Below are positions 3,915-19,374 of a stretch of DNA of 64,000 bases, one piece after another. This DNA is from Escherichia coli (GTDB lineage: Bacteria > Pseudomonadota > Gammaproteobacteria > Enterobacterales > Enterobacteriaceae), in NCBI RefSeq assembly GCF_024502345.1, contig NZ_JALDNN010000001.1; one strand, given 5' to 3'. Each line of letters starts with the position of its first letter. Positions within the stretch are counted from its first letter, which is position 1. A program made the translations under genes and the position numbers. The notes beneath the pieces were generated by a model. It was not told the origin of the DNA and did no database searches. It saw only the letters and a list, made by a program, of their open reading frames with translations.

Positions 3915-6176
3915 TCATCCCCGACGCAAATTCTGCGCCGCCTGCACCATGTTCGCCAGTGCCGCGCGGGTTTCTGGCCAGCCGCGCGTTTTCAGGCCAC
4001 AGTCCGGGTTGACCCACAGGCGCTCTGCCGGAATGCGTTTTGCCGCTTTCTTCAGCAAGGCTTCAATCCATTCCACGCTCGGTACGTTTGGCGAGTGAAT
4101 GTCATAGACGCCTGGACCGATTTCATTCGGATAATCAAACTCTTCAAACGACTCCAGCAACTCCATGTCGGAACGCGAGGTTTCGATGGTGATGACGTCT
4201 GCATCCAGTGCCGCAATCGAATCCATGATGTCGTTGAACTCGCAATAACACATGTGAGTGTGGATTTGTGTGTCATCTTTCGCCACGGCGGCGTTGATAC
4301 GGAAGGCCTCCACGCCCCACTGGAGATATGCATCCCAGTCGCTACGACGCAGCGGTAAACCTTCGCGCAGCGCCGGTTCATCAATCTGGATGATGCCAAT
4401 TCCTGCGGCTTCCAGGTCCGCCACTTCATCACGCAGCGCCAGCGCAATTTGTTTGGCGATGGTTTCACGGCTGACATCTTCACGCGGGAACGACCAGCAG
4501 AGAATGGTCACCGGGCCAGTCAGCATCCCTTTCACCGGTTTATCAGTCAGAGATTGCGCATACTTCGCCCACTCCACGGTAATCGGTGCCGGGCGGCTAA
4601 TGTCACCAATGACAATCGGTGGCTTCACGCAGCGGGAACCGTAGCTCTGTACCCAACCGTTTTGCGTAAAGACAAATCCGTCGAGGTGCTCGCCAAAGTA
4701 TTCCACCATGTCATTACGCTCGGCCTCGCCATGTACCAGCACATCCAGTCCCAAACGTTCCTGTTCAACAATGGCCTGCTTGATATGTTCCGCAATGCCC
4801 GTGCGGTAGTTGTTGGCGTCGAGATTACCCTTTTTGAAATCCAGACGCAGGGTACGAATTTCCGTGGTTTGCGGGAAGGAACCAATCGTGGTGGTCGGCC
4901 ACGCTGGCAGTTTAAAACGCGCACGCTGGGCTTCGGCACGCACTTCATAGACATTCGCACGCTGGCTGTCCTGGGCGGTGATCGCCGCCAGACGCTTTTC
5001 TACTGCCGGGTTATGTACACGAGTAGAGTGACGACGCGCCTGAATTGGAGCGCTCCACTCTGCCAGAGCTGCCGTATCACCACTGTTCAGCGCATCTCGC
5101 AGCAGTGCCAGTTCATGACATTTTTGCAGGGCGAAGGCAAACCAGCTTTTCACTTCTGCATCAAGACGCGTTTCCACGCTCAGGTCGATGGGGCTGTGCA
5201 GCAACGAGCAGGAAGATGCCACCCACAAATCACGTTTGCCGACAATGTCCTTAATTTGCGCATATTTCTCAGTAAGATCGGCGCGCCAGACGTTACGACC
5301 ATTGATCAGACCCGCAGACAGCAGCCAGTCAGAAGGCAGGCGCTTGTGCAGTTCAACAACGTCATCTTTACCATGTACAAGGTCCACATGCAGCCCCTGA
5401 ACAGGCAGCGCAGTAATCGTGTCGAGATTTGGCGTTACGCCTTCAAAATAGGTGGTCAGCAGCAGTTTCACCTGTCCCTGGAGCGCGTCGTAAGCGGGTT
5501 TGTATGCGTCCAGCCACGCCTGTGGTAGTTCCAGTACCAGCGCGGGTTCATCAATCTGTACCCACTCGATGCCGCGTTTCGCCAGTTCTGCCAGCACTTG
5601 CTGATAAACCGGCAGAATGTCGTTCAGCAGGCTAAGGCGGTCAAACTGTTCACCTTTCACTTTCCCCAGCCACAGGTAAGTAACCGGCCCCAGCAGCACA
5701 GGCTTAACGTTGTGGCCCAGCGCCAGCGCCTCGTCCACTTCCTCCAGCAGCTGCGTCCAGGTCAGTTTGAACTGTTGGCCTTTAACGAACTCCGGCACCA
5801 TGTAGTGATAGTTGGTGTTAAACCATTTGGTCATTTCCGCTGCCGCCGCAGGTTCGCCAGTCGGCGCACGTCCACGACCAATACGGAACAGGGTGTCGAT
5901 ATCTACCGAACCGTCTTTGTTCTGATGACGTGGCGGAACATTACCCAGCAGCAAACTGGTGGTCAGTACATGATCGTACCAGGCAAAATCGCCCACCGGC
6001 AGCAGGTCGATACCCGCTTGCTTTTGTTGATCCCAGTGACGAGCACGCAGTTCACGCCCTACTGTCAGCAGTTCTTCACGCGTGGAGTTCCCCGCCCAAT
6101 AACTTTCTTGCGCTTTTTTCAGCTCGCGACGCAGGCCAACGCGAGGGAAACCGAGGGTGTGATTCAATATTGTCAT
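3915..6176 (-). CDS. metE: Cobalamin-independent methionine synthase
   Basis: 753-aa ORF, N-terminus [29 protein letters not shown] typical of MetE; divergent from metR as in E. coli. Confidence 0.97.
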
Positions 6177-15058: not shown

Positions 15059-15946
15059 ATGGATGCAAAACAAACGCGGCAGGGCGTATTACTCGCTCTT
15101 GCCGCTTATTTTATTTGGGGTATTGCGCCAGCATACTTCAAGCTGATTTACTACGTGCCCGCCGATGAAATCCTGACGCATCGCGTGATCTGGTCGTTTT
15201 TCTTTATGGTGGTGCTGATGAGCATTTGCCGCCAGTGGTCCTATTTAAAAACGCTGATTCAGACGCCACAGAAAATTTTTATGCTGGCAGTCTCTGCCGT
15301 GCTGATTGGTGGCAACTGGCTACTGTTTATCTGGGCGGTGAACAATCACCATATGCTGGAAGCGAGCCTTGGTTACTTTATTAACCCGCTGGTGAACATT
15401 GTGCTGGGGATGATTTTCCTCGGCGAGCGATTCCGCCGGATGCAATGGCTGGCGGTGATTCTGGCGATATGTGGCGTGTTAGTCCAGCTGTGGACTTTTG
15501 GTTCGCTACCTATTATCGCGCTGGGACTGGCATTTAGTTTTGCCTTCTACGGTCTGGTACGCAAGAAGATTGCCGTTGAAGCGCAAACCGGCATGTTAAT
15601 TGAAACCATGTGGCTGCTGCCCGTGGCGGCAATTTACCTGTTTGCTATTGCCGACAGCTCAACCAGCCATATGGGGCAAAACCCGATGTCGCTGAATTTA
15701 CTGCTGATCGCCGCCGGTATTGTCACTACCGTACCGCTGTTGTGTTTTACCGCCGCTGCCACGCGCTTGCGTCTCTCAACGTTAGGCTTTTTCCAGTACA
15801 TTGGCCCGACGCTGATGTTCCTGCTGGCTGTGACGTTTTATGGTGAAAAACCGGGTGCCGATAAGATGGTGACTTTCGCCTTTATTTGGGTGGCGCTGGC
15901 AATTTTTGTGATGGATGCGATTTATACGCAGCGTAGAAAAAGTTAA
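15059..15946 (+). CDS. rarD: EamA/DMT-family membrane protein RarD
   Basis: 295-aa polytopic membrane ORF; synteny. Confidence 0.9.
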   Translation: MDAKQTRQGVLLALAAYFIWGIAPAYFKLIYYVPADEILTHRVIWSFFFMVVLMSICRQWSYLKTLIQTPQKIFMLAVSAVLIGGNWLLFIWAVNNHHMLEASLGYFINPLVNIVLGMIFLGERFRRMQWLAVILAICGVLVQLWTFGSLPIIALGLAFSFAFYGLVRKKIAVEAQTGMLIETMWLLPVAAIYLFAIADSSTSHMGQNPMSLNLLLIAAGIVTTVPLLCFTAAATRLRLSTLGFFQYIGPTLMFLLAVTFYGEKPGADKMVTFAFIWVALAIFVMDAIYTQRRKS

Positions 15947-15956
15947 GAATTAACAT

Positions 15957-16005
15957 GGGTAGGCCGTTTAATGAGCCTACCCACTGACTTATTTATCTTT
16001 TTTTG
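15957..16005. terminator. Hairpin GGGTAGGC/GCCTACCC followed by T-rich run; candidate bidirectional terminator after rarD
   Basis: 8-bp perfect stem read from sequence, then TTATTTATCTTTTTTTG. Confidence 0.55.
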
Positions 16006-16337
16006 AAAAAAATTAAGATAAGAAAAAGAACAATATTTGTTACAGGAAGTACCCCCAAAACTCCCCAGTACTTACTCCATCCTAGAGACATCGTATATCT
16101 ACCAAGGATTTGACAAAACCCAAAACTTAACCCTATACCTATACTTCTTAAATTTAATGTCGTAGTCAGGCTTAAAATAAATAGAACAAGGATGGTAATA
16201 GCCCACCACAATAACCATGCCTTAACAAAATCAGATTTTTTGCTGTAAGGTTCTTTACCCAAGAACAACTGCCAAAAGTTACCATTCCCCATATAGAATC
16301 CATTCCCCAAGATATTGTTTATAGAATAAAAATACAT
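15993..16337 (-). CDS. Small hypothetical inner-membrane protein (114 aa, two predicted TM helices), AT-rich
   Basis: ORF with hydrophobic segments AWLLWWAITILVLFILSL and WGVLGVLPVTNIVLFLILIFF; possibly the yigG-position gene; identity not verified. Confidence 0.4.
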   Translation of the reverse strand: MYFYSINNILGNGFYMGNGNFWQLFLGKEPYSKKSDFVKAWLLWWAITILVLFILSLTTTLNLRSIGIGLSFGFCQILGRYTMSLGWSKYWGVLGVLPVTNIVLFLILIFFKKR

Positions 16338-16616
16338 TCCAATTATATTTAATTAAAATATACCCCATCAATAAAAACTTACACACTCTAAATTACTACT
16401 GTATAGTTATCAATGCAAAGACTGCTATATTGCATATATATATGCAAACCTCATAATTCAGGTAATATATATATTCAAAACAATTATATATAAAAAACAA
16501 TGTAAAAAATATTCAAATCATCCATCAGAAATATATTCTACCCATCCAGGCTTGAGCATTTATCACGCTTTCAGTTCATAATCTATACATTAACATCATG
16601 GTCAATATTAATAACT

Positions 16617-16895
16617 TTGAATGATATCAACCTGGCTTTGAGTTTTATTCTGGTTATTAATAATACCTATGTAAATATCAATATTGGAGCAAAAAGAATA
16701 AGAGATACTGGATGTAAGGCAATCTACTTTGTATTGATTTCATTGGGTTTGACACTTTTTTCTATTATCTCTGCAGCAATTGAAGGGGTGAGATGTGAGT
16801 CATTAAGCGTCCAACTCAACGTGGCATGGATATTATTCACAACAATTATGTTATCTGCGATTCCCTCGGCTAAAATGTCGCTGTCAGCACACTAA
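16617..16895 (+). CDS. Small hypothetical membrane ORF (92 aa, TTG start, no ATG in open upstream frame); possibly a 5'-truncated remnant, DUF805-like RIRDTG motif
   Basis: Hydrophobic ORF; in-frame upstream sequence is open to 16506 without a Met codon. Confidence 0.3.
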   Translation: MNDINLALSFILVINNTYVNINIGAKRIRDTGCKAIYFVLISLGLTLFSIISAAIEGVRCESLSVQLNVAWILFTTIMLSAIPSAKMSLSAH

Positions 16896-16919
16896 CTTAC
16901 TCACAGCGACATCGTATAG

Positions 16920-17062
16920 TTACAGCCAGTTCTTGCGCTTAAAGTACAGATACGGTGCCAGGCCCGCGAGGATCATAAAGATAATCGCGCCTGGGTAGCC
17001 GAAACTCCACTTCAGTTCTGGCATAAACTCAAAGTTCATGCCATAGCTGGAGGCAATCGGCG
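16920..17062 (-). pseudogene. Duplicated, diverged 3' fragment of corA (last ~47 codons, about 95 percent identical to 19416-19558)
   Basis: Encodes [48 protein letters not shown], near-identical to the CorA C-terminus; homology ends abruptly near 17062. Confidence 0.85.
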
Positions 17063-17233
17063 TAGGAAAAAGTTTCCTAATCGGTAAATTCAATATTTTG
17101 TTATTAACAATGAGCAAGACCAATCATTAACGACGTTCTCTTCAGAGATGTAATGAAAAAATGTGAAGTGTACTTCTTTTTTAAATATTTTTTTACCCTA
17201 GCATTTGTTCTCAAATTGGGTAATGACTCCAAC

Positions 17234-17737
17234 TTATTGATAGTGTTTTATGTTCAGATAATGCCCGATGACTTTGTCATGCAGCTCCACCGATTTTGAG
17301 AACGACAGCGACTTCCGTCCCAGCCGTGCCAGGTGCTGCCTCAGATTCAGGTTATGCCGCTCAATTCGCTGCGTATATCGCTTGCTGATTACGTGCAGCT
17401 TTCCCTTCAGGCGGGATTCATACAGCGGCCAGCCATCCGTCATCCATATCACCACGTCAAAGGGTGACAGCAGGCTCATAAGACGCCCCAGCGTCGCCAT
17501 AGTGCGTTCACCGAATACGTGCGCAACAACCGTCTTCCGGAGCCTGTCATACGCGTAAAACAGCCAGCGCTGGCGCGATTTAGCCCCGACGTATCCCCAC
17601 TGTTCGTCCATTTCCGCGCAGACGATGACGTCACTGCCCGGCTGTATGCGCGAGGTTACCGACTGCGGCCTGAGTTTTTTAAATGGCGGAAAATCGTGTT
17701 GAGGCCAACGCCCATAATGCGGGCGGTTGCCCGGCAT
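17234..17737 (-). CDS. insB: IS1 InsB (expressed as InsAB' transposase by -1 frameshift)
   Basis: 167-aa ORF typical of IS1 InsB, overlapping insA 3' end. Confidence 0.95.
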
Positions 17738-17931
17738 CCAACGCCATTCATGGCCATATCAATGATTTTCTGGTGCGTACCGGGTTGAGAAGCGGTGTAA
17801 GTGAACTGCAGTTGCCATGTTTTACGGCAGTGAGAGCAGAGATAGCGCTGATGTCCGGCGGTGCTTTTGCCGTTACGCACCACCCCGTCAGTAGCTGAAC
17901 AGGAGGGACAGCTGATAGAAACAGAAGCCAC
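17656..17931 (-). CDS. insA: IS1 InsA
   Basis: 91-aa [46 protein letters not shown].. identical in character to IS1 InsA. Confidence 0.95.
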
Positions 17932-18029
17932 TGGAGCACCTCAAAAACACCATCATACACTAAATCAGTAAGTTGGCAGCATCACCCTCAAATTGATATT
18001 GAGCTTAAATATAACCAAGGAAAATGTAA

Positions 18030-18886
18030 ATGAATAACACATTACTTCCATCAATTAATATTCCCTGTACACTTTTCGAAACTATTAGTTTATTTGATGA
18101 TTATTCTGCTGATGATATGCAATATGGTGATATGGTGATATGGTAGAACAAGATTTTCTCTCACTCGGCCTAAGCGATATCTCAGCAAAAGTTGATCCTT
18201 ACAGACTTATTAAATACCATTTCCCTAGCCCAGGTTCTATTAATGTTGCTTTTAGTGCCTCAAGTTCCGGAACAAAAATATCACAACGTGAATGCACTGA
18301 TATTTTATTTGCAGAAATGAAAGAACTAGCAAAAATGTTTTCCTTTTTTGGACAATATAAAACACTTATCGAAGATCTGATTGAACATTTTAGATATGGA
18401 AATGGCAGCAATTTTCATAGCCAACAATTAAATTTATCTTTTCATGAAAAAATAAATAAATATGGTTATAATAGTCCAATACGAATAATCAAAGAATGTA
18501 TCGAAAATGGCATTAATTCAACTCCCTCGACAGGATACCAACCTCTTATCCTGCAAAGCATTAAAACCAAATTACTTTCATCAAGACTAAATAAATTTAA
18601 TGACTTCGAGGACAGTTTTAATGGCTTAGGAATCAGTGTTCATGATATTTCAGCTCAAAAAATATCTCTTTTAAGTTTTCAAAAATACGCTATAGGATGG
18701 AGTGCAACAATTCATTTTGTAGCACAGGACCACTTCGGTCTTGATGTAACTGATATCAAAAACAAGACTTACAGCAAATATAGATTTTTTCGCATATGGT
18801 TCTTTTTACAACGGCATAAAGACTTTGCTTTCAAACCTTTTTTCACCAATTTTAACACTATCGAAAGAATCGAAAATTATCTATGA
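18030..18886 (+). CDS. Hypothetical protein, first gene of accessory two-gene cassette; currently split: 38-codon leader ORF (18030-18146) plus 248-aa ORF (18140-18886) separated by an 8-bp tandem-repeat frameshift
   Basis: ATG 18030 preceded by AAGGA at 9 nt; removing one 8-bp repeat unit fuses the two ORFs into about 283 aa; AT-rich; no recognisable family motif by eye. Confidence 0.55.
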
Positions 18887-19374
18887 AAAGCAAACTCCAG
18901 AAAATTATATTATGTTTATTTCTTCTATGCTGCATCTATAATTTATGGACATTGCGTCCTGTACAGATTTTGTATACATACTCTGATGCTGGCAATTCAG
19001 TCTTTCTGGTCGTTGATCATCTGCCATGGACTGACAGCGATAAAATAAATTGGTATCTGAAGCATCAGAATGAAATTAAAAATCAACATCCCCTACCAGA
19101 AGGTAGTTGGCATACCTGGTATGTCATTGATATCGGTAATGGCTTCACTGACTATAAAAAATATATCGAAGGGCCGTATGAAGATCTCTACTGTTTCCCG
19201 ACAATTAAGAGCAATGATAATTGCATCGTGAAAAATTACTTAATGGTTATTAATGAATACCCTTATCGTAACACTCATATTGTTATTAACGATTTTACTG
19301 AGTATCAATTAACACAAGAAAATAAAATAGAGCGAGTTTTCAATCCGCATGACTTTAAAAAAGACAATTTTTAG
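18883..19374 (+). CDS. Hypothetical signal-anchored/exported small protein (163 aa), second gene of cassette, translationally coupled (ATGA overlap)
   Basis: N-terminal hydrophobic segment KIILCLFLLCCIYNLW; start overlaps stop of upstream gene; AT-rich. Confidence 0.6.
   Translation: MKSKLQKIILCLFLLCCIYNLWTLRPVQILYTYSDAGNSVFLVVDHLPWTDSDKINWYLKHQNEIKNQHPLPEGSWHTWYVIDIGNGFTDYKKYIEGPYEDLYCFPTIKSNDNCIVKNYLMVINEYPYRNTHIVINDFTEYQLTQENKIERVFNPHDFKKDNF

Follow-up and report, generated by a model that had tools for sequence, protein, structure and literature searches.

The interval between rarD and corA in this Escherichia coli genome is occupied by a small AT-rich module. The gene pair at this place probably exists as two alleles that exclude each other and are equally AT-rich, the module being one of them. 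The module spans positions 15939-16919 of the window, that is, of the whole 64,000-nucleotide stretch of contig NZ_JALDNN010000001.1 that was analysed, and consists of two divergent genes, here termed orf99 and yigG-like. The gene order around it is recQ(-), pldA(-), yigI(+), rarD(+, 15059-15946), the module, a corA 3' fragment, IS1, DUF3289, DUF943 and an intact corA(-, 19416-20366). The features concerned are as follows.

15939..16919, no strand: whole variable module, 32% GC, which takes the place of K-12 yigG-yigF.
15955..15984, no strand: GC-rich hairpin of 11 pairs that separates the stop codons of rarD and orf99, which are convergent, with a plus-strand T-run after it.
15993..16337, minus strand: orf99, a gene for a small membrane protein; the maximal ORF has 114 aa, the probable product 99 aa from the ATG at 16292.
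16293..16508, no strand: divergent intergenic spacer, 216 bp, 22% GC, with (AT)n tracts.
16509..16895, plus strand: yigG-like gene, 128 aa if intact, with about 4 TM helices; ATA stands in place of ATG here.
16875..16912, no strand: short inverted repeat with 13-nt arms, 92% complementary, which spans the yigG-like stop codon.
16920..17066, minus strand: corA 3' remnant, the last ~147 nt of the gene; it forms the module's right border and is repeated directly where the intact corA ends (19416-).

The allelic nature of the segment is seen when positions 15900-17000 are compared with complete E. coli genomes by megablast. The full segment is present in 1430 of 5426 genomes (~26%) at 98-100% identity, with O157:H7 among the carriers of the orf99/yigG-like module, and in non-carrier E. 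coli only the first ~39 nt (the rarD end) and the last ~81 nt (the corA end) match. Homology to the K-12 type ends at window position 15938 and returns at 16920; one module breakpoint falls within the final codons of rarD (~15939), the other at the stop codon of corA (16920). Between these points K-12-type genomes have an interval of almost equal length holding yigG and yigF, both in the forward direction, and a sensitive blastn with a word size of 7 detects no DNA similarity between this interval and the module. Flanks that match around an interior that does not thus identify the segment as an alternative allele of the yigG-yigF interval. The yigG-yigF pair has been replaced by orf99 and yigG-like, and the AT-rich allele has been swapped as a unit via the conserved rarD and corA flanks. 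In composition the two are much alike, with K-12 yigG-yigF, at 35% GC, being about as AT-rich as the module (0.32, against 0.51 window-wide).

The initial annotation had proposed that the two ORFs might occupy the K-12 yigG/yigF positions, and had regarded clear identity to those genes as the mark of ordinary backbone. The position is indeed the same and the plus-strand ORF shows distant YigG homology; the minus-strand ORF is unrelated to YigF and lies on the opposite strand. Direct identity to K-12 yigG and yigF was rejected, given the lack of a DNA match and a protein homology that is distant for one ORF and absent for the other. The segment is ordinary backbone of the accessory, variable kind. 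It is also taxonomically narrow, since a scan of 100,044 species representatives for the orf99 motif returned just 4 matches, namely one Escherichia sp. and three E. coli contigs mis-binned in MAGs. These three contigs (L026, L027 and L028), 98-99% identical to the E. coli locus, are found in MAGs named Clostridium sp., Alistipes sp. and Collinsella sp., and are most likely binning contamination.

Are the two reading frames genes, or is the segment non-functional, with frames that are pseudogenes in decay or have arisen by chance in AT-rich sequence? Consistent with the latter are the loss of the yigG-like start codon here and in an estimated 349 genomes, the fact that PGAP leaves the yigG-like ORF unannotated even if intact, and the lack of any curated family match for orf99. 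Such a reading is nevertheless quite improbable in view of the constraint on both frames. With reference to a divergent Escherichia lineage (L008, which resembles Escherichia sp. MOD1-EC7003) that has the same layout and flanking genes 89-96% identical, dN/dS is 0.19 for orf99 against 0.30-3.5 for off-frame controls, a comparison based on 16 substitutions only, and 0.17 for yigG-like against 0.45-3.0 for its controls, which shows purifying selection on both. Moreover, both ORFs are intact in the same arrangement in other genera at 46-61% protein identity. Pseudocitrobacter corydidari and Salmonella enterica have a divergent pair between rarD and corA, made up of orf98 and a 127-aa YigG-like gene, the product of the latter being 46% identical to E. 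coli yigG-like and the orf99 relatives, in the same position, 59-61% identical. Further orf99 relatives of ~105 aa, ~30% identical, occur on metagenomic contigs with unrelated neighbours, and AlphaFold gives a confident, all-helical model for orf99 (pLDDT 81). Taken together, the dN/dS values and the syntenic orthologous pair in other genera indicate that orf99 and yigG-like are real, conserved genes.

The plus-strand gene is one whose start has been lost by a point mutation. The initial annotation had described a 92-aa ORF with a TTG start and an open, Met-less upstream frame, both of which are seen: the ORF lies at 16617-16895 and represents the 3' part of the yigG-like gene, and the frame is open from 16506, directly behind a TAA at 16503-16505; its 129 codons include no ATG, GTG or TTG upstream of 16617. 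The suggestion that the ORF is 5'-truncated is contradicted by DNA alignment with strains that keep the ATG, which shows no deletion but a G to A change at 16511 that converts ATG to ATA (16509-16511). The ATA is found in the window and in Res13 (L001), the ATG in Eco_23-2667, DEC9B and 147 (L004-6), and the exact ATA-bearing 60-mer in 349 of 1382 carrier genomes. The usual form among database relatives has 128 aa and begins MFKSSIRN; intact forms are P0030-32, with P0030 standing for 648 member sequences. The rest of the frame is intact in the window. No Shine-Dalgarno is present in the sequence upstream of the TTG at 16617, and the protein is probably untranslated or only very weakly translated in this strain. 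Weak initiation could take place at the ATA, the frame being otherwise intact and the variant being carried by hundreds of genomes. The CDS is without PGAP annotation in every RefSeq locus examined, even with the ATG (L004 at 4604-4990, L005, L006, L013 and L014, including O157:H7 EC4115). At the same locus in PEC41 (L012 1686-2066) the K-12-type yigG is a pseudogene with an internal stop, an observation which suggests that yigG-family genes at the rarD-corA locus are dispensable in some lineages.

With regard to ancestry, the 129-codon frame of the window matches the YigG profile NF008474 at E=1.2e-5 and 25.4 bits over profile positions 15-133 of 138, and the intact P0030 and P0032 score 24-33 bits, with E down to 5e-8. 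The equivalog cutoff of 217 bits is not reached by the yigG-like ORF, whereas K-12 YigG itself scores 255.6, and by these profile scores the ORF is a YigG homolog and not an equivalog. In BLASTP the ORF and K-12 YigG are 29% identical across 72 aa (E=6e-5). What YigG (NF008474 / PRK11371, an inner membrane protein of 126 aa) and the yigG-like protein have in common is the same rarD-corA locus, the same strand relative to rarD, similar length (126 vs 128 aa), about 4 predicted TM helices, an identity of 25-29%, low GC and the motif I-N-x4-R-x-R-D-x-G, in which I57, N58, R63, R65, D66 and G68 (P0030 numbering) are invariant and which represents a conserved cytoplasmic-loop motif of the yigG-like protein. 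Kyte-Doolittle analysis of the plus-strand ORF gives three to four TM helices; the AlphaFold model has a pLDDT of only 66. The two differ in that yigG-like is far under the equivalog cutoff (25-33 vs 217 bits) and has no DNA similarity, and in their setting, as K-12 yigG adjoins rarD and is partnered by yigF whereas yigG-like adjoins corA, is partnered by orf99 and has lost its functional ATG here.

The DUF805-like motif reported in the initial annotation is present, but membership of the family falls below threshold, with PF05656 matching the plus-strand ORF at E=0.019 and 15.8 bits (13.6-16.1 bits over the different forms) against a cutoff of 25.7. K-12 YigG, too, matches Pfam DUF805 only below threshold. 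Likeness to DUF805 proteins, such as E. coli YhaH and YhaI, extends to a small multi-TM architecture, a basic N-terminal 'SRxxF/Y' and, ahead of the final helices, an R-x-x-D/x-x-G loop; the difference is that no member of the yigG-like or orf99 families reaches the gathering score. For both ORFs the evidence for DUF805 membership is below threshold throughout.

On the minus strand, a 114-aa ORF with two TM helices had been noted, and the ORF at 15993-16337 bears this out, with Kyte-Doolittle analysis giving two strong helices, residues 37-55 and 93-111. In Res13 (L001, as WP_000526434, with DNA 100% identical to the window's) and in L004-6 the product called by PGAP has 99 aa. A TTGATG-18-TATAAT promoter-like site, a match to consensus only, spans 16371..16342 and ends 5 nt short of the first ATG (16337); a transcript from this site would begin at or just downstream of that ATG, which favours the shorter form, and the probable start is the ATG at 16292. 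As delimited by an exhaustive phmmer and profile search, orf99 belongs to an unnamed family of ~100 aa with 2-3 helices and the core G-F-x-Q-I...L-G-x-(S/N)-K...N-x-x-L-F. No Pfam, NCBIfam, PHROG or PADLOC family was found for it, and a Foldseek search of its model against the PDB gave 0 matches. As the other small membrane protein of the rarD-corA interval, K-12 YigF (DUF2628) is the positional counterpart of orf99, but the two are unlike in sequence and in profile (BLASTP E>5) and differ in strand and length. The idea that orf99 is an inverted YigF/DUF2628 gene is ruled out by Pfam (no PF10947 match at E<=10), BLASTP (E=5.3) and hhalign (probability 0.4%).

No relationship was detected between orf99 and K-12 YigG, and the proposal that orf99 and yigG-like are mutual paralogs is unsupported, with an hhalign probability of 2%. 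Matches to DUF805 below threshold are found in 7 of 13 orf99 family members, the best at E=6e-5 and 22.8 bits vs the cutoff of 25.7, and the window's own protein has no DUF805 match. Comparison with YhaH and YhaI by hhalign pairs the motifs that would be expected, but yields E=0.013 and 0.0046 at a probability of just 3-8%; for orf99 it aligns RYTMSLGWSKYW with RRLHDTDRSAWW at 3% probability. A relationship between orf99 and DUF805 is on these profile comparisons possible, and the protein would be at most weakly DUF805-like. P0046, an apparent 42% 'homolog' from a rarD-corA locus like that of E. coli, was set aside, its sequence having the look of homopolymer assembly errors.

The two genes are separated by the very AT-rich spacer with TATATA tracts to which the initial annotation had drawn attention, and which has 22% GC and (AT)n tracts; GC dips to 0.23-0.28 across 16300-16700. 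DNA alignment reveals AT- and A-run indels between strains, the lengths of the (AT)n and A-run tracts at window 16430-16500 varying by indels of 2-3 nt, and such variation could change promoter spacing. Promoter-like sites in the spacer are not commoner than in shuffled sequence, and no non-coding RNA is recognised there by Rfam at E<=1. The hairpin at 15955..15984 is a probable bidirectional terminator, and the inverted repeat at 16875..16912 may act as one between yigG-like and corA', which converge there. Apart from these two terminator-like hairpins, a search of the module for structured repeats and att-like sites found just short AT-rich chance repeats.

To the right of the module lies a DUF3289 gene (TIGR03034, YPO3983 family) followed by a DUF943 gene. 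The first encodes a published T6SS effector resembling colicin M, the second the protein that confers immunity to it (PMC11148199). Could the small ORFs be accessory parts of this cassette, either as extra immunity, as a holin-like release factor or as remnants of an older cassette? The module is the immediate neighbour of the DUF3289/DUF943 pair, shares its low GC (32% in the module) and the same rarD-corA hotspot, and of the 1430 genomes with the left module 1407 have the module and cassette composite. The pair is, however, a separate unit which lies between the corA 3' direct repeats and assorts independently. Five rarD-corA architectures are found in E. coli.

K-12 type: yigG-yigF alone.
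PEC41: yigG-yigF plus cassette.
NZRM3614: orf99/yigG-like alone.
The window and O157:H7: orf99/yigG-like plus cassette.
Rb-3: cassette alone.

The module is thus found without the cassette in NZRM3614, and also in Salmonella and Pseudocitrobacter, and PEC41 and Rb-3 have the cassette but lack the module, so that there is no obligate linkage of orf99/yigG-like to the DUF3289 effector and each occurs without the other. This independent assortment argues that the small ORFs are not cassette parts, immunity factors or holins, and the earlier suggestions of cassette-associated remnants and of immunity or holin-like factors are not borne out. Additionally, the corA' remnant stands between module and cassette, the cognate immunity role is demonstrated for DUF943, and the module has no PHROG or PADLOC matches (no PHROG below E=0.15), on which ground a phage or defence origin was rejected. 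With respect to a phage holin, there is no holin-family match, and the surrounding genes, rarD, corA', IS1 and DUF3289/DUF943, include none for lysis and none of phage type. That the small ORFs are accessory parts of the cassette is consequently very improbable, and the preferred reading is of a module that is an allele of yigG-yigF in its own right.

The corA 3' end (~147 nt) occurs twice, as direct repeats at 16920-17066 and 19416-19562 that flank the DUF3289/DUF943 cassette. In the window the initial ~130 nt of the two copies are ~93% identical, and in related loci (L001, L004-6, L008/9) identity is 88-94%; PGAP labels the remnant a partial CorA pseudogene in Res13/L001 and L004-6. The arrangement resembles what would be left behind by an insertion that entered corA at its 3' end and restored the gene. 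A complete 768-bp IS1 at 17219-17986, with a 9-bp target duplication CTCAAATTG (17210-17218 and 17987-17995), is inserted 44 bp ahead of the codon at which DUF3289 starts (18030) and is absent in strains such as Res13. The DUF3289 gene (18030-18886) contains an 8-bp tandem duplication, GGTGATAT x2, at 18126-18141, which causes a frameshift with a TAG after 38 codons; the 248-aa ORF that restarts at 18140 is missing the N-terminus. Since DUF943 (18883-19374), the immunity gene, remains intact, the strain has probably kept immunity and lost the toxin.

If two alleles segregate at one locus, what keeps them there? One answer is a balanced trans-species polymorphism in which the proteins face a variable outside partner, for instance a phage, bacteriocin or effector. 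In E. coli the two alleles are both segregating (~26% vs the rest), as they apparently are also in S. enterica, where K-12-type yigG is reported from Typhimurium, Saintpaul and Typhi and as lacking in Enteritidis (PMC3579871) and where contigs L023 and L024 carry the orf98 and YigG-like pair, which suggests that Salmonella is also dimorphic at the locus. In addition, yigG-like has a dS of 0.61 in the comparison of Escherichia lineages, where the genes on either side have 0.20-0.27, lower by a factor of two to three. The patchy distribution would, though, be produced equally by occasional homologous replacement via the rarD and corA flanks, and only one Escherichia sp. among the 100,044 species representatives matches the orf99 motif. 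Balancing selection of this type is therefore unlikely, and the same low standing attaches, if at a shade more credence, to the more specific idea of two ancient, non-alignable haplotypes, possibly driven by phages, bacteriocins or contact-dependent effectors. Were the haplotypes ancient and balanced, orf99 and yigG-like would be a functional pair and not filler.

As to how the alternative allele might work, orf99 and yigG-like would be transcribed divergently from the 216-bp, 22% GC spacer, and both products would be small helical inner-membrane proteins, with the plus-strand protein a putative, very divergent member of a YigG lineage that is itself weakly DUF805-like. In K-12, the yigF/yigG region is a listed 'promoter island' (PMC3661553) and yigG has been treated as an H-NS-silenced gene with intragenic promoters (PMC7229825), and by analogy the module, like K-12 yigG-yigF, may be an AT-rich locus of low expression subject to H-NS-type silencing. 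Only orf99 is likely to be made in this strain. Deletion of yigG in Salmonella alters attachment and chlorine tolerance (PMC3579871), from which the module proteins may modulate envelope or surface properties; this role is offered tentatively, being extrapolated from one Salmonella study of a K-12-type yigG that is ~25-29% identical.

The significance of these observations is slight beyond annotation hygiene, and in evolutionary terms a locus that is dimorphic in more than one species is a small curiosity. Within those bounds, a common E. coli locus, found in about a quarter of complete genomes, holds a constrained 128-aa YigG-like gene that RefSeq annotation omits in the loci examined, and the separateness of the module from DUF3289/DUF943 guards against the mis-assignment of the small ORFs as immunity or holin genes. 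The neighbouring 'hypothetical protein', orf99, represents a small unnamed family that extends across Escherichia, Salmonella and Pseudocitrobacter.
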